This document shows, piece after piece, positions 15,182 to 20,315 of a DNA stretch of 32,000 bases; position 1 is the first letter of the stretch, and the number at the start of each line of letters is the position of its first letter. Source of the DNA: Nostoc sp. JL34 (GTDB lineage Bacteria > Cyanobacteriota > Cyanobacteriia > Cyanobacteriales > Nostocaceae); the NCBI RefSeq assembly GCF_017114945.1, contig NZ_JABXKQ010000066.1:99242-131241 (forward strand), read 5' to 3'. A program made the translations under genes and the position numbers. The notes under the pieces are model-generated. The model was not told where the DNA came from and did no database searches. It worked only from the letters and a program-made list of their open reading frames with translations.

Positions 15182-15461
15182 ATAACCTGTAAAGTCAAGT
15201 TTCAGTATGAATACTAACAGATAGATCCCCGATTTCTTGAAGAAGTTTGGGATCTAATAATTTCAAGTAAGTAAAATCGATAAGTACTGCTAATTTTAAA
15301 GGCGATATCTTCACAACTAGCGGTGAAAAATCATAATTTTTGCTGAGGCGATCGCTAAACAAATCCCACAAAAATAGTAACAAGTTAGTTGCAAATTTTG
15401 AAGTAGATTTCCATAAATCATTATCAAAATTTGGTTTTACTGTTTGTGGAGAGGAATAGTC

Positions 15462-15851
15462 ATGAAAAACAAAGTATTGTTTGGTGCCATATTTATGGCA
15501 ACTTGGGTAGGAACATTAATTCCTAGCGCTTTTGCGGCTTCACCCTGTTCTGTGGGACAAAAGGCTGAAGTTCTTTGGAAGCAAGCATGGTATCCGGCAA
15601 CGGTACTTAAGGTTAATGATGATAAGTGCTATATTACCTACGATGGTTACAGCAGTTCCTGGAATGAATGGGTTGGCGCTACACGCTTTCGGGCATCATT
15701 TGAAGTTGGAGATGCAGTGAGAATTTTGTGGAAGGGAAAATGGTATCAAGGGCAGATTTTAGAACTTAGTAACGATCTTTATAAAATTACTTATGATGGC
15801 TACGATAGCTCTTGGGATGAGTGGGTTGAACCTTCCAGAGTAAGCAGATAG
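15462..15851 (+). CDS. Secreted protein with two tandem Tudor/Agenet-like (SH3-fold) repeats
   Basis: ATG at 15462 preceded by GGAGAGGA. Signal peptide MKNKVLFGAIFMATWVGTLIPSAFA. Two repeats: GQKAEVLWKQAWYPATVLKVNDDKCYITYDGYSSSWNEWV and GDAVRILWKGKWYQGQILELSNDLYKITYDGYDSSWDEWV. Confidence 0.65.
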   Translation: MKNKVLFGAIFMATWVGTLIPSAFAASPCSVGQKAEVLWKQAWYPATVLKVNDDKCYITYDGYSSSWNEWVGATRFRASFEVGDAVRILWKGKWYQGQILELSNDLYKITYDGYDSSWDEWVEPSRVSR

Positions 15852-15875
15852 GGAATATTTCACTTTTATAAGTTT

Positions 15876-15910
15876 AAAGGGACGATTTCACTTGTTGAAG
15901 TCGTCCCTTT
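15876..15910 (+). terminator. Terminator-like hairpin after the Tudor-like gene
   Basis: 10-bp stem AAAGGGACGA / TCGTCCCTTT with a 15-nt loop. The trailing T-run is weak (AAATTT). Confidence 0.45.
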
Positions 15911-15916
15911 AAATTT

Positions 15917-16040
15917 AAAAGGGCGGTTATAAACCGCAGCTACACAGACAAAACCCACCTCCGTGGGTTTCAAACCCTCAATTTTCCTTAGTCCGCAGAG
16001 GCGGACTTTGTTTGTGTAGCCGCGAATTCCATTCGCCTTG
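15917..16040 (+). repeat. Dispersed MITE-like element, copy B
   Basis: AAAAGGGCGGTTATAAACCGCAGCTACAC...TAGTCCGCAGAGGCGGACTTTGTTTGTGTAGCCGCGAATTCCATTCGCC. Same orientation as copy A. It sits directly upstream of the NLR operon. Confidence 0.8.
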
Positions 16041-16092
16041 GCTCTGTTAAACTGAGAACCATAAATAAAATCTCGTATACTTTGGCAAACTT

Positions 16093-16545
16093 ATGGAGCC
16101 AGTATCACTGACAGCCGCTGCGATCGCAACTTTGGTAATCACCAAAGCCTTTGAAAAAACTGGGGAAATCATCGGCGAAAAGGCTTGGAACGAAGGCGAA
16201 AAGTTGTTAGTTCTGCTCAAACGCAAGGAACCTAGCACGGCGAAGGTTATTGAACAGGCTAAAACACAACCTTTAGATTATGGTCAAGCTTATCTCATTG
16301 GGCAGCAGGTAGAGGAAGCGGCGAAGAAAGATCCTGAGATTGCTCAAGCTGTGGAAGCTGTAGCCAATGAAGCACAAACGCAGATTAATCAAATAGTTAT
16401 AAAAGGAATTCTGGTAAAAGGTAAAGCTAAAGTCGGTAATATAAATTTGTCAGCCACAAGAGACGGTTCAGTGAATCAAGAAGCGGTGGTTGATTCTCAA
16501 TTTGGCGGCGATCTTGATCTTGGTAATGTGGACATGAAAGTCTAA
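16093..16545 (+). CDS. Small all-helical protein with hydrophobic N-terminal helix and C-terminal NLR-matching motif (Bell-domain-like effector candidate)
   Basis: 150 aa. N-terminus MEPVSLTAAAIATLVITKAF, about 100 aa helix-prone, Gly/Asn/Gln-rich tail ending SQFGGDLDLGNVDMKV. The stop codon is 4 nt from the NLR start codon. Confidence 0.6.
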   Translation: MEPVSLTAAAIATLVITKAFEKTGEIIGEKAWNEGEKLLVLLKRKEPSTAKVIEQAKTQPLDYGQAYLIGQQVEEAAKKDPEIAQAVEAVANEAQTQINQIVIKGILVKGKAKVGNINLSATRDGSVNQEAVVDSQFGGDLDLGNVDMKV

Positions 16546-16549
16546 AATC

Positions 16550-18796
16550 ATGAGCAAAAATCACAGCCCAGAAGAAATTTTACAGAGCATTCTCCGAAAT
16601 GTACAAGTAGGCGGCAATCTGACTACAGGCGATATTACCCAAATCCTGAATTTACTGGTTATTATTCAACAGCCAGACGTTTTCAAACCAAAGGAAATTC
16701 CTCAAAATATTCCTCGTGGTAGTATAGTCAAGTTTGTTGGACGTGCTGAGACTTTAGTGAGTCTGCACGAAAGGCTACAACACAGTTCTCAAGTGGTGAT
16801 TGCTGCGATTGAGGGTATGGGAGGAGTCGGGAAAACAGAGTTAGCAACTCAGTATGCACTGATTCACCTGTTACTCAACACTTACCCAGGTGGTATCTGT
16901 TGGTTACGCGCTAGAGATGAAGATATTGGGCTTCAGATATTGCAGTTTGCCATAGCTAAGTTAGGACTAAAACCACCAGAAGATTGGGATTTACCAAAGC
17001 AAGTTGATTTTTGTTGGTCACGCTGGCACGATGGGAATGTGTTGGTAGTGCTGGATGATGTCAACGATTACCCCAAAGTAGAGCAATATTTACCACCACA
17101 ATCACCCCGGTTTAAGCTGCTAATTACCAGCAGGTTACAGTTAGATTTTTCCCAGTCATTTACTCTAGATGTTTTAAGTGAGTCCGCAGCACTGGAACTT
17201 TTACAAGAGTGGGTGGGAGCAGAAAAAGTCGCACGAGAATTAGAAGATGCCAAAGAAATTTGTCAGCGTTTAGGTTGTTTACCTTTGGCGCTGAATTTGG
17301 TGGGGAGGTATGTGAAAAAGCGGAAAATCTCTTTAGCAGAAATGTTGCGGCGGTTAGAAGAAAAAAAGTTAACTCATGAATCTTTAGCACGGGATGAAAA
17401 AGACTGCACTTGGACGCTGAATGTCAAACGAGGTGTTGCTGCTGCTTTTGAGTTAAGTTGGGAAGAATTAAATGATGATGCCAAGGAGTTAGGTGTTTTA
17501 CTGAGTTTATTTGCTTTAGCTCCTATTCCCTGGGGACTGGTAGAAAGTGTAGAAATGGGGAAAGATGCTGAACAGTTGGAAGATAGCAGAGTTGAGTTAG
17601 AGAGTTTGCATCTGCTTCAAGGTGAGGACAGCTACCAACTACATCAACTCATTCGGGAATTTTTTCAACTCAAGCAGGCTGAGTTCAATCAAGTGGAGGA
17701 ATTAAAGCGATCGCTTTGTCGGGTAATGGTAGCAGTTGCCAAAGAAATTCCTTACACCCTTACCCTGAAGCAAATTAGCGATGTCACCCCCGCTATACCT
17801 CATATAGCTGAAGTAGCGAACAATCTTATTCAATACGTCAGCGATGATGATCTAACTTTACCTTTTATTGGTAACGCTCGATTTTACCAAGGTCAAGGGT
17901 TGTATAACCAAGCTTTACCTTGGTATAACCAGTGTCTAGAAGTTACCAAAAAACGCTTAGGAGAGGAACACCCATTTGTTGCAGAAAGCCTCAACAACCT
18001 AGCTTTACTCTACGAATCTCAAGGCAGATACAGCGAAGCCGAACCTCTTTACATCCAAGATTTGGTACTCACGCGTAAGCTGCTGGGCGAAGAACATCTA
18101 GGTGTCGCCACTAGCCTCAATAACCTAGCTGTACTTTACAACTCCCAAGGCAGATACAGCGAAGCTGAACCCCTTTACATCCAAGCTTTGGCACTCACGC
18201 GTAAGCTGCTAGGCGAAGAACATCTAGATGTCGCCCAAAGCCTCAACAACCTAGCTGTACTCTACGATTACCAAAGCAGATACAGCGAAGCCGAACCCCT
18301 TCACATCCAAGCTTTAGCACTCAGGCGCAAGCTGCTAGGAGAAGAACATCCACATGTCGCCTCTAGCCTTAACAACCTTGCGGGACTCTACTTTCCCCAA
18401 GGCAGATACAGCGAAGCCGAACTCCTTTACACTCAAGCTTTGGCACTCAGGCTCAAGCTGCTGGGAGAAGAACATCCAGATGTCGCCCAAAGCCTCAACA
18501 ACCTAGGGTATCTCTACTCTTTTCAAGGCAGATACAGCGAAGCCGAACCCCTTTACATCCAAGCTTTGGCACTCAGGCGCAAGCTGCTGGGAGAAGAACA
18601 TCCATTTTTTGCCATTAGTCTTAACAATTTGGCAAAACTTTTTCACTTACAAGGAAGTTATACCGAAGCCGAACCATTGTATCTGCAAGCATTAAAGATT
18701 TTTGAGCAACAATTACCGATGAACCATCCTTGGACTGTTAAGTGTCGTGAATATCTGGCAAATCTTCGCGATCGCCTCCCTCCAAATCCAGAATAA
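16550..18796 (+). CDS. STAND NTPase of NB-ARC type with C-terminal TPR array (bacterial NLR-like)
   Basis: Walker A GMGGVGKTELA and Walker B VLVVLDDVND. NB-ARC-like helical region, then at least 6 kinesin-light-chain-type 42-aa TPR pairs (LNNLAxLYxxQGRYSEAEPLY). Only about 60 aa precede the P-loop domain. Confidence 0.9.
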   Translation: MSKNHSPEEILQSILRNVQVGGNLTTGDITQILNLLVIIQQPDVFKPKEIPQNIPRGSIVKFVGRAETLVSLHERLQHSSQVVIAAIEGMGGVGKTELATQYALIHLLLNTYPGGICWLRARDEDIGLQILQFAIAKLGLKPPEDWDLPKQVDFCWSRWHDGNVLVVLDDVNDYPKVEQYLPPQSPRFKLLITSRLQLDFSQSFTLDVLSESAALELLQEWVGAEKVARELEDAKEICQRLGCLPLALNLVGRYVKKRKISLAEMLRRLEEKKLTHESLARDEKDCTWTLNVKRGVAAAFELSWEELNDDAKELGVLLSLFALAPIPWGLVESVEMGKDAEQLEDSRVELESLHLLQGEDSYQLHQLIREFFQLKQAEFNQVEELKRSLCRVMVAVAKEIPYTLTLKQISDVTPAIPHIAEVANNLIQYVSDDDLTLPFIGNARFYQGQGLYNQALPWYNQCLEVTKKRLGEEHPFVAESLNNLALLYESQGRYSEAEPLYIQDLVLTRKLLGEEHLGVATSLNNLAVLYNSQGRYSEAEPLYIQALALTRKLLGEEHLDVAQSLNNLAVLYDYQSRYSEAEPLHIQALALRRKLLGEEHPHVASSLNNLAGLYFPQGRYSEAELLYTQALALRLKLLGEEHPDVAQSLNNLGYLYSFQGRYSEAEPLYIQALALRRKLLGEEHPFFAISLNNLAKLFHLQGSYTEAEPLYLQALKIFEQQLPMNHPWTVKCREYLANLRDRLPPNPE
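17963..18718 (+). repeat. Six tandem 126-bp coding repeats (42-aa TPR pairs) of very high mutual identity
   Basis: Units start at 17963, 18089, 18215, 18341, 18467 and 18593. Long stretches such as GGCAGATACAGCGAAGCCGAACCCCTTTACATCCAAGCTTTGGCACTCA recur nearly verbatim. Confidence 0.9.
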
Positions 18797-18862: not shown

Positions 18863-18896
18863 TTGAATAAGTAAAAATGCCTGATTACTTATTCAA
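18863..18896. terminator. AT-rich hairpin between the NLR gene and the minus-strand repeat ORFs (possible bidirectional terminator)
   Basis: 11-bp stem TTGAATAAGTA / TACTTATTCAA with a 12-nt loop. Low G+C, so the call is weak. Confidence 0.35.
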
Positions 18897-19090
18897 AAGT
18901 AGCTTTTACTTCCTCAAAAGCAGCTTTCAATTTCGCATTTTAGTGTTTTCCACAAGCAAAAGCAGCTTTTACTTTCTCAAAAGCAGCTTTTAATCTCGCA
19001 TTTTAGTGTTTTCCACAAACAAAAGCAGCTTTTGCTTTCTCATTTTGGTGTTTGACGCAAGCAAAAGCAGCTTTTACTTTCTCAAACCCC
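18896..19090. repeat. Tandem repeat of 62/63/42/~28 bp built on the core AAAAGCAGCTTTT
   Basis: Units at 18896-18957, 18958-19020, 19021-19062 (lacks an internal 21 nt) and 19063-19090. The core occurs 7 times. Confidence 0.85.
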
Positions 19091-19253: not shown

Positions 19254-19472
19254 ATGTTAATTACATACACTGCAAAATATACAAAAACTAATAGCGGATA
19301 TATGGGACAACTCATTGAATGGCAAGAAGTCATTACAGAAGGAGAAACCTTAGAAGAATGCAGGGCTATGTTACAAGACGCAACCAAAGAAATGATTCTT
19401 GCCTATCGCCAACAAAAGAAAGAAATTCCCATAGGTGATTCTTTGCTCGAACAAATTCCTATAGAGGTTTGA
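19254..19472 (+). CDS. hicB: HicB-family antitoxin (short form, UPF0150-like, no DNA-binding domain)
   Basis: 72 aa, YTAKYTKTNSGYMGQLIEWQEVITEGETLEECRAMLQDA pattern. Overlaps the downstream hicA start by 4 nt. Confidence 0.7.
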   Translation: MLITYTAKYTKTNSGYMGQLIEWQEVITEGETLEECRAMLQDATKEMILAYRQQKKEIPIGDSLLEQIPIEV

Positions 19473-19663
19473 GTGTGTCAGTCAAACGAAAAGAGCTAAT
19501 TAAATACTTAGAACAAAATGGCTTTTATTTATTAAGGGAAGGAGGAAATCATTCAATTTATACTAATGAGATAAAAACTCTTCCTGTAAAACGGCATCGT
19601 ACCATTGATCGTATTACTGCTAATGAGATTTGCAAACAAGCAGGTTTATTACCTAATTTTTAA
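19469..19663 (+). CDS. hicA: HicA-family mRNA interferase toxin
   Basis: 64 aa, KRKELIKYLEQNGFYLLREGGNHSIYTN...ICKQAGL matches the HicA/YcfA pattern. TTG start at 19469 (or GTG at 19475). Confidence 0.8.
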   Translation: MSVSVKRKELIKYLEQNGFYLLREGGNHSIYTNEIKTLPVKRHRTIDRITANEICKQAGLLPNF

Positions 19664-19745: not shown

Positions 19746-20315
19746 ATGATAGCCTCGCCCCAACAAAACTACGTCACCGTTGAAGAATACCTCCAAATGG
19801 AGGAACAGAGCAATATCAAGCATGAATACATCGACGGCTACATCTACGCAATGGCTGGAGCGCTAGATCCACATGTTACCATTGCTGGAAACCTGTTTGC
19901 TCTCCTCCGTAATCATGTGCGCGACTCTGGTTGTCGTGTTTACATCGCTGACATGAAAGCCAGAATCGAATCTCTGAATCGCTTTTATTATCCCGATGTG
20001 ATGGTTACTTGCGATCAACGAGATCGAGAAACACCAGGTTATAAAAGATTTCCCTGTTTAATTGTCGAAGTTTTATCTAATTCTACCGAAGCCTTTGACC
20101 GGGGCGACAAATTCGCCGATTATCAAACACTCGAAAGTCTGCAAGAGTATGTTTTAATTAATACAAAACGTCAGCGAGTTGAGTGTTTTCGCCGCAATGA
20201 GCAAGGGTTGTGGGTTTTACAATCCTACACAGCAGAGCATCAATCATTTCGACTCAACAGCGTGGATTTTGAGGAAACAATGGCAGCACTTTACGAAGAT
20301 GTGATTTTTGAATAA
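19746..20315 (+). CDS. Uma2-family (DUF820) PD-(D/E)xK endonuclease
   Basis: 189 aa with EYIDGYIYAMAGA, YIADMKARI, YPDVMVTCD and CLIVEVLSNSTEAFDRGDKFADY blocks, typical of the cyanobacterial Uma2 family. Confidence 0.85.
   Translation: MIASPQQNYVTVEEYLQMEEQSNIKHEYIDGYIYAMAGALDPHVTIAGNLFALLRNHVRDSGCRVYIADMKARIESLNRFYYPDVMVTCDQRDRETPGYKRFPCLIVEVLSNSTEAFDRGDKFADYQTLESLQEYVLINTKRQRVECFRRNEQGLWVLQSYTAEHQSFRLNSVDFEETMAALYEDVIFE

Follow-up and report, generated by a model that had tools for sequence, protein, structure and literature searches.

When a small gene and a receptor gene lie a few nucleotides apart and their products share a terminal peptide motif, the question arises whether the two proteins act together, with the motif as the link between them. 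We studied such a locus in 32,000 nucleotides of DNA from Nostoc sp. JL34 (NCBI RefSeq assembly GCF_017114945.1, contig NZ_JABXKQ010000066.1, positions 99,242 to 131,241 of the forward strand), a stretch referred to below as the window. Open reading frame 1 (ORF1; 16093-16545, + strand) encodes a Bell effector of 150 aa with a double motif at its C terminus and ends in the stop codon TAA (16543-16545). ORF2 (16550-18796, + strand) encodes an NB-ARC/TPR protein of the NOD-like receptor (NLR) type, which is 748 aa long, carries one copy of the motif at its N terminus and is devoid of an effector domain. The genes lie on the same strand in differing reading frames, separated by the 4-nt spacer AATC (16546-16549), and are probably co-transcribed, as judged from this arrangement. 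An initial annotation had described two co-directional reading frames 4 nt apart as a candidate amyloid-templated switch; the layout is as it described, and the peptides it quoted can be found in the sequence together with the codons GGCGGCGATCT and GGCGGCAATCT. We conclude that ORF1 and ORF2 are very probably a Bell/NLR pair of the fourth class of bacterial amyloid signalling sequences (BASS4). To go by its sequence, the pair is a further example of the system catalogued by Dyrka et al. 2020, and not a new system.

The shared motif spans 22 residues and is found in three copies, two in ORF1 and one in ORF2. In ORF1, the pseudo-repeats R1 (16384-16449, + strand; residues 98-119, INQIVIKGILVKGKAKVGNINL) and R2 (16471-16536, + strand; residues 127-148, VNQEAVVDSQFGGDLDLGNVDM) are joined by the 7-residue linker SATRDGS. 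The NLR-side motif, ILQSILRNVQVGGNLTTGDITQ, occupies residues 10-31 of ORF2 (16577-16642, + strand). Within the window alone the match is only marginal: in Smith-Waterman alignments to the NLR N terminus, assessed against composition-preserving shuffles, the p value was 0.049 for the whole tail, 0.020 for R1 and 0.0096 for R2. As an independent measure, we built a BASS4 hidden Markov model (HMM) from 14 published rows (Dyrka et al. 2020, Table S2), leaving out the pair orthologous to that of the window, and ran it, with filters off, against the 509 six-frame segments of the window that are 30 aa or longer. Residues 10-31 of ORF2 matched at 32.5 bits (E 8e-10) and ORF1 at a sequence E of 1.6e-6, with R2 scoring 22.8 bits (domain E 1.8e-6). 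Just these two proteins matched among the 509 segments, the next best having an E of 0.77. The motif that the initial annotation had read as 13 shared positions is thus real by an independent profile, and longer than had been thought, although the pairwise likeness from which it was read is weak by itself. As in the published class, the motif stands at the C terminus of a Bell protein and at the N terminus of a collinear NB-ARC protein within 5 kb.

Among the published BASS4 entries is the pair OYD94771.1/OYD94772.1 (Dyrka et al. 2020), with KSNETINQIVLKGVEVKGKAKVGDINL on the Bell side, ILQSILQNVQVGGNLTTGNITQ on the NLR side and a 6-nt gap between the genes. ILQSILRNVQVGGNLTTGDITQ differs from the NLR-side motif of that pair at two residues. 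The published table aligned R1 of the orthologue to the NLR motif and left R2 unaligned (Dyrka et al. 2020); the full OYD94771.1 sequence also carries R2. Across the 300 Bell-like proteins that we collected, BASS4 is present in 53, and 52 of these have two repeats, with a linker of 5-6 residues, most often 6, as measured between HMM envelopes. R1 is conserved in all two-repeat homologues. The two-repeat effector with a one-repeat NLR, noticed in the initial annotation, is accordingly the norm for BASS4, and this layout has been remarked on before (PMC8086366). The motif also holds across orthologous pairs: it is present on both sides in all 15 BASS4 loci whose NLR N terminus is intact, and no BASS4 locus among those compared keeps an intact NLR without a Bell gene.

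The N-terminal part of ORF1 (16093-16380, + strand; approximately residues 1-96) is a Bell domain, with five predicted helices. The published signature of a Bell domain is a hydrophobic N-terminal helix preceded by an acidic residue at position 2 or 3. ORF1 begins M-E-P-VSLTAAAIATLVITKAF, where glutamate is residue 2 and VSLTAAAIATLVITKAF forms the hydrophobic first helix. Searching with ORF1 gave 224 homologues, nearly all from Nostocales. It is 43% identical (E 1.1e-25) to P0098, the representative of a 90% cluster that contains OYD94771.1 (P0128), the Bell-side entry of Table S2, and is thus homologous to the published Bell set. In that published work the Bell domain was modelled as an all-helical five-helix bundle of ~100 residues (Dyrka et al. 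2020). An AlphaFold2 model of ORF1 from a 50-sequence alignment likewise places helices at residues 8-21, 29-45, 47-58, 63-79 and 81-105, with predicted local distance difference test (pLDDT) values of 77-89 for residues 30-100 and a disordered tail (pLDDT ~33); a shallower alignment left the topology unchanged. ORF1 hit no family in Pfam, NCBIfam or PADLOC, the best matches (L23, E 0.11; ZorB, E 0.014) being noise, and when PDB sequences were searched with the Bell profile, nothing but designed coiled coils came up, none of them with an E better than 0.016. When the two AlphaFold2 models were compared with the PDB by Foldseek, no match had an E below 0.5, so the assignment of ORF1 to the Bell group rests on sequence homology and the signature and not on fold. 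Rx-CC, NRG1 CC-R and Bcl-xL appeared in the Foldseek ranking only at non-significant places, so we make no fold claim. Bell folds vary widely in topology according to the authors of the Bab 'Babybell' structure (9H9V), in which helices cup helix 1. Bell homologues of 42-55% identity were also seen on eight cyanobacterial plasmids, including NC_019761.1, NC_019773.1 and NZ_CP091916.1, all annotated as hypothetical; none was found in the phage collection.

ORF2 reads as an intact-looking NB-ARC/TPR STAND ATPase. Its NB-ARC domain (Pfam PF00931, E 6.4e-18) covers residues 70-275 (16757-17374, + strand) and includes a Walker A motif, GMGGVGKT (16814-16837, + strand; residues 89-96), and a Walker B motif, LVVLDD (residues 165-170); GCLPLAL can be read in the translation. 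Repeats of the superstructure-forming kind follow, as expected of an NLR or STAND protein of this type. Pfam finds seven TPR_12/TPR_10 stretches in ORF2, and the sensor region (17879-18763, + strand; TPR_12, E 1.5e-96) contains six 42-residue units. As only the motif precedes approximately residue 60, ORF2 has no effector domain of its own, and its description in the initial annotation stands. The six units share a mean identity of 72%, and their variation is concentrated at unit positions 7, 10, 17, 20, 21 and 39 (counted from 0); in the DNA, the array is a tandem repeat of 126 nt with 5.1 copies and 85% matches. Fast-evolving NLR sensors of fungi are marked by such internal identity together with changes in copy number, and Dyrka et al. 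2020 relied on the analogy with fungal NLRs when they linked high identity between repeats to binding specificities that diversify rapidly. The number of TPR units (17960-18675 in the window) also differs strongly among the near-identical loci L001, L002, L072 and L074. In L001, where the Bell protein is 99% identical to ORF1, the NLR is 1330 aa long and has 11 core motifs, against 748 aa and 6 in the window, and the NLR of L002 is 958 aa long.

To place the pair among its relatives, we scanned one genome per species and obtained 80 loci from 215 relatives, almost all of them Nostocales. At least five types of tail occur on the Bell domain: the two-repeat BASS4 tail, a BASS7-like tail ending in ...ENWQGINIKGGTNTISGNTFNF, one ending in ...NYGGNVGNVSNDNRNQTFNF, a BASS5-like tail ending in ...KLAEKIGIVVQGGTVNI and one ending in ...LPNLKAVFQGNTIQGDVTF. 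Near-identical Bell domains carry unlike tails, and one type of tail is found on Bell domains that are only ~43% identical.

The window locus is itself a product of such shuffling. We compared window positions 16026-16400 with L012, L020, L069, L073 and L078. From 16026 to 16390 the DNA is 80-95% identical to the BASS7-type loci L012 and L020, reaching 92-95% within the Bell domain. From approximately 16400 onward, its identity to L069, which combines a Bell protein of the 153-aa family with BASS4 and an NLR, is 73-100% and mostly 85-100%, whereas identity to L012 is only 13-29% over the tail and the NLR N terminus. At 85-100% DNA identity, the module of tail and NLR matches relatives of the published pair OYD94771.1/OYD94772.1. 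The approximate recombination breakpoint thus falls at 16380-16400 (+ strand), at the Bell/BASS boundary. The locus is a chimera: its Bell domain and upstream region come from a BASS7-type paralogue clade, and its tail and NLR come from the 153-aa Bell/BASS4 clade and were inherited as one module despite the Bell swap. Because the breakpoint lies at the Bell/BASS border and tail and NLR moved together, we regard this as the strongest in-silico argument that the two motifs are functionally coupled. Chimeras of a related kind, joined at a different point, occur in Tolypothrix and other Nostoc (L003, L004, P0003 and P0031); in L003 and L004, which encode 158-aa proteins, the junction is 8 residues longer. 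As a natural chimera, in which the module of NLR plus tail is combined with two Bell domains ~43% identical, the locus offers a handle on whether the tail alone sets the specificity of activation.

How does the pair compare with systems that are better understood? The BASS4 pair of Dyrka et al. shares with it the motif class, the two-repeat tail (INQIVLKGVEVKGKAKVGDINL...VNQEAVVDAKFGDDLDLGNVNM), a near-identical NLR motif, the NB-ARC/TPR receptor and the collinear gene order, with a gap of 6 nt there and 4 nt here. It differs in its Bell domain, which is only ~43% identical (as measured to its cluster), the Bell domain of the window deriving from another paralogue clade. The classification as Bell/BASS that was suggested in the initial annotation therefore holds, since ORF1 is homologous to the published Bell set and both proteins carry BASS4. 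The novelty claimed for the pair was overstated: this kind of gene pair, its motif class and an orthologous pair of tail and NLR were catalogued in 2020, and the mechanism proposed for it had already been put forward as a hypothesis in Dyrka et al. 2020. On its own, the pair enlarges a family of unproven role by a single cyanobacterial locus, a modest gain. The HET-S/NWD2 pair of Podospora anserina also resembles the window pair, in that a membrane-targeting helical N-terminal domain is followed by two C-terminal pseudo-repeats of ~21 residues, and that the adjoining NLR has a single N-terminal repeat and no effector domain. In a probabilistic context-free grammar (PCFG) analysis, HET-s ranked as the motif closest to BASS4 (PMC8086366). 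In contrast to this likeness of layout, there is no detectable sequence homology between ORF1 and the fungal protein, and Pfam assigns ORF1 neither to HeLo nor to any other family. The receptor is of the NACHT/WD type there and of the NB-ARC/TPR type here, and the inter-repeat linker has ~15 residues there and 7 here. Unlike HET-S, the window pair is bacterial and has no known allelic prion partner. Lacking HeLo and NACHT/WD, it is analogous to HET-S/NWD2 in its presumed working and not a member of that system.

The closest experimental support for the proposed mechanism is offered, by analogy, by Bab/Agp of E. coli ECOR25 (BASS11), for which abortive infection against T5 has been shown (bioRxiv 10.1101/2024.11.07.622273). 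There too, a small Bell-related helical effector has a C-terminal amyloid motif, and the same motif stands at the N terminus of a protein encoded next to it, which activates the effector. Bab/Agp differs from the window pair in its motif class, its single repeat, its non-NLR sensor and its place in a prophage defence island, and the PDB searches with ORF1 gave no significant match in sequence or fold, with the Bab structure 9H9V absent from the hits. Avs and bNACHT proteins are likewise STAND ATPases with a repeat sensor, which oligomerise on ligand binding and bring about cell death, as ORF2 might do. In these systems the effector is fused to the sensor, whereas in the window a separate effector would be coupled to it through a short motif; no Avs or bNACHT model of PADLOC was matched by the window pair.

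By analogy with HET-S/NWD2 and Bab/Agp, we favour a model, which we regard as reasonably probable in full, where the NLR oligomerises, templates the tail and thereby lets the Bell domain damage the membrane. Binding of a ligand by the hypervariable TPRs would lead to oligomerisation through NB-ARC, and the oligomer would gather several NLR-side repeats into a cross-beta nucleus. This nucleus would template the R1-R2 tail of ORF1, and refolding of the tail would free the hydrophobic first Bell helix to damage the membrane. The affected cell of the filament would then die or halt growth, in abortive infection or another altruistic response.

Several observations weigh against this model. Experiments on amyloid formation cover BASS1, BASS3 and BASS11, and the literature searched holds no demonstration for BASS4 or for any cyanobacterial pair. 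Nor does it report toxicity, or a role in defence or allorecognition, for either of these, and the function of Bell/NLR pairs is described as still to be worked out (bioRxiv 10.1101/2024.11.07.622273). The Foldseek comparison described above gave no significant match to the PDB, and the Bab structure 9H9V was absent from the results. R1 scored only 3.8 bits against the BASS4 profile. The rest of the window is ordinary chromosome, the neighbourhood consists mostly of housekeeping genes and no recognisable defence island was seen around the pair; PADLOC-DB 2.0 reports no defence system, its only matches being to a TPR model of generic type (E 1.2e-14) and, weakly, to ZorB (E 0.014). A further point comes from co-variation, which the initial annotation had put forward as a check. 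Among 18 two-gene loci (15 BASS4 and 3 BASS5), tails scored 36.0 against NLR N termini of their own class and 22.8 against those of the other class, a specificity at class level that favours the model. This correspondence is lost inside BASS4, where cognate pairs scored 34.7 and non-cognate pairs 35.9 (permutation p 0.92). The Bell tails are near constant and the NLR motifs form several variants, some of which, such as NVQARDITVKSITQ, are at background score against their own tails. The absence of residue-by-residue tracking is compatible with loose amyloid templating, yet lends it no positive support.

These points bear differently on the explanations that compete with amyloid templating followed by membrane damage. 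If the NLR and ORF1 made an ordinary stoichiometric contact, by beta-strand pairing or adaptor docking, ORF1 would be recruited and not amyloid-templated. Cognate pairs without fine co-variation, NLR motifs that barely resemble the tail of their partner and the lack of reported BASS4 fibrils in the literature searched would all suit such a contact. We nevertheless think it rather unlikely, as the alternation of Q/N/G with V/I, the length of ~22 residues, the pseudo-repeats and the terminal placement match BASS1, BASS3 and BASS11, which behave as prions, and HET-s; for BASS1 and BASS3, both prion behaviour and fibrils are on record. Loose sequence matching is, moreover, itself typical of amyloid templating. 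It is also conceivable, with a somewhat lower probability, that signalling proceeds as proposed and that the Bell domain, instead of killing the cell, has a reversible effect on the membrane or on regulation, for instance by arresting growth or by giving a developmental or symbiosis signal in the filament. The Bell N terminus, however, resembles those of HeLo, MLKL and CC domains, and Bab, a Bell relative, kills E. coli once activated. Against these likenesses stand a locus set among housekeeping genes and outside a recognisable defence island, the many carriers that are cyanobionts of lichens or plants, and the literature searched, which holds no toxicity data for cyanobacterial Bell domains.

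Two explanations concern the locus itself. As a mosaic with its breakpoint near the Bell/BASS border, and with a Bell domain whose donor clade normally has another expression layout, the window locus could be an evolutionary accident, a foreign Bell domain joined to a BASS4 tail and an NLR that may no longer function together. We consider this improbable. Both reading frames are intact, and the related chimeras in Tolypothrix and other Nostoc indicate that the swap is tolerated and retained. P0137, which is recorded for unclassified Nostoc as a 'MULTISPECIES hypothetical protein', has the same sequence as ORF1, and this sequence is found on 9 contigs from several assemblies, with a 748-aa NLR in the 6 places shown; because ORF1 is identical and NLR length is constant, the pair is not decaying. 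Finally, the likeness of the two termini could have arisen by chance between low-complexity ends of unrelated neighbours, a reading that the pairwise shuffles, with p values of 0.01-0.05, would hardly have dismissed. It is effectively refuted by the independent profile, with its two significant hits and nothing else in the window below an E of 0.77, and by the presence of the motif on both sides of every BASS4 locus with an intact NLR N terminus.

The donor clade of the window Bell domain led to a more novel lead than the window pair. Bell genes of this clade with BASS7-like or ...QTFNF tails end in TGA, and an NB-ARC/TPR protein follows directly in the same frame (...NTLNF, stop, LQSPEGERAKLNPPTGIPQNLPLSGVLEFVGRE...GMGGVGKT). 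We read the TGA-type loci as a set (L005-L063, L066, L077, L080, L081, L088-L090, L093-L099 and L101; none in the window), of which the distant lineages L088-L098 were fetched by exact protein and L099 and L101 are annotated plasmids. The set includes L020 and L025 of Nostoc punctiforme NIES-2108, L081 of Nostoc sp. C052 and L099 of Allocoleopsis PCC 7113. All 73 loci of this type that were read have TGA as the stop codon of the Bell-BASS gene, and in 70 of them the same frame continues for at least 100 codons or to the end of the contig. These 70 in-frame loci fall into six Bell clusters with less than 70% identity between them. Their in-frame partners are NB-ARC/TPR, NACHT+HEAT, nSTAND1+WD40 or transmembrane plus PsbP-like proteins, or are of unknown type, and they are without a receptor-side motif. 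The base after UGA is C in 69 of the 73 loci and A in 4, with no case of U or G; of the stop codons, UGA is the one most often read through, and the +4 base influences how often this happens (PMC5289835). The junction TTC-TGA-CTA-MAG-TCG stands out as an island of conservation, also in loci whose sequences on either side of it have diverged. By comparison, the 20 Bell genes with TAA or TAG as stop codon all belong to two-gene forms. In 19 of these the partner gene starts with an ATG of its own and encodes its own copy of the motif; the twentieth, L068, has a 5'-truncated NLR.

A usable start codon for a separate partner protein is often lacking in the TGA-type loci. No ATG, GTG or TTG precedes the FVGR motif in 3 of 52 Nostoc loci, the start chosen by the gene caller in L089 is a Met inside the P-loop, and in Allocoleopsis PCC 7113, where RefSeq uses an ATT start, the first 80 codons contain no canonical start. 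A few loci have non-NLR, membrane-anchored partners behind the UGA: PsbP-like proteins in L077 (from 4436 onward), L095 and L096, and a Pro/Ser/Thr-rich membrane-anchored reading frame in L037 and L040 (4376-5131). These membrane-anchored partners carry the same conserved linker, L-[QK]-S-P-E-x-E-R-x-K-x-N-P.

From the sequence pattern, we tentatively propose programmed UGA readthrough, whereby one mRNA might yield an abundant Bell-BASS effector and a rare fusion of Bell-BASS and sensor. Programmed readthrough may be the best explanation of the in-frame UGA pattern, a judgement to which we give slightly less than even weight, and it concerns the sister loci, not the window pair itself. The variability of the linker behind the UGA among close Nostoc loci (0.117/0.094/0.078 by codon position) is not coding-like and speaks against readthrough. 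The pN/pS ratio of this linker between distant lineages ranges from 0.26 to 1.0, being below 1 in 8 of 9 comparisons on few sites, and we likewise count it on the opposing side. To the same side belongs the absence of fusions in which Bell and NLR are joined through a sense codon where the UGA would stand, both among the best 120 of 432 matches in a collection of 5.8 billion proteins and among the best 150 of 254 representatives. One candidate for a true sense-codon fusion, P0360, is a deletion fusion. A predicted hairpin 3' of the in-frame UGA (CCCC-loop-GGGG in an outer CCGCAAA/TTTGTCGG stem) was considered as a recoding signal and rejected, as the same nucleotides occur inside two-gene NLRs. 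Selenocysteine insertion at the UGA was set aside because no hairpin after the UGA is conserved across lineages. The pattern could otherwise stem from termination and reinitiation at poor start codons, or from a historical fusion that was split by a stop codon.

Readthrough was not mentioned in the Bell/BASS literature searched. The data suggest that many Bell loci without a receptor-side motif may not be orphans and may instead be single transcription units, with a UGA between effector and sensor. Programmed recoding is rare in bacteria, and readthrough, if true, would be an instance of it; it might also help to account for the half of the Bell-side motifs that lacked a partner in the 2020 survey. 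Readthrough would further provide a built-in ratio of effector to sensor for an amyloid amplification step. The window pair would then represent the form with two motif copies, one on each protein, and its sister loci, which appear to use one copy and a leaky stop, the other form; that the window locus is a recombinant of both architectures is a possibility that we put at a little under even.

The immediate surroundings of the pair contain features of lesser weight. Directly 5' of ORF1 lies a promoter-like site, CTGAGA-18-TATACT (16052-16081, + strand), and ahead of it a terminator-like hairpin (15990-16007), each a match to consensus only; 8 promoter-like sites were found against 6.1 expected from shuffles, which is hence no evidence of function. 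Short repeats, direct as well as inverted, cluster with palindromes in the stretch that separates the Agenet gene from ORF1 (15841-16030), at 15866-15925, 15965-15977 and 15990-16007. This is the only upstream stretch in which the window differs from its close relative L001, with 25-57% identity against 92-100% on both flanks.

The neighbouring genes encode parts of a lysyl-phosphatidylglycerol synthase, two esterases, an Agenet/Tudor-like protein, HicA and a UPF0150-like (HicB-like) protein, a Uma2 endonuclease and an aspartate kinase, and they are the same across the 6 places shown, except for the HicA/HicB-like pair, which is absent from one. The HicA toxin gene with its HicB-like partner (19254-19663), followed by the Uma2 endonuclease gene (19746-20315), lies just 3' of the NLR. 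As the HicA/HicB-like pair is missing in L085, which is otherwise syntenic, the locus varies at this edge. In the interval from the NLR stop codon to the HicB-like gene, a ~25-nt unit (CAAAAGCAGCTTTTACTTTCTCAAA) occurs six times in an array (18894-19086), with a spacing of 21 or 42 nt. On the other side of the pair, the gene at 15444-15851 encodes a 135-aa protein with a hydrophobic N terminus, signal-peptide-like by appearance, and two Agenet/Tudor-knot-like halves, domains that are better known from eukaryotic chromatin readers.

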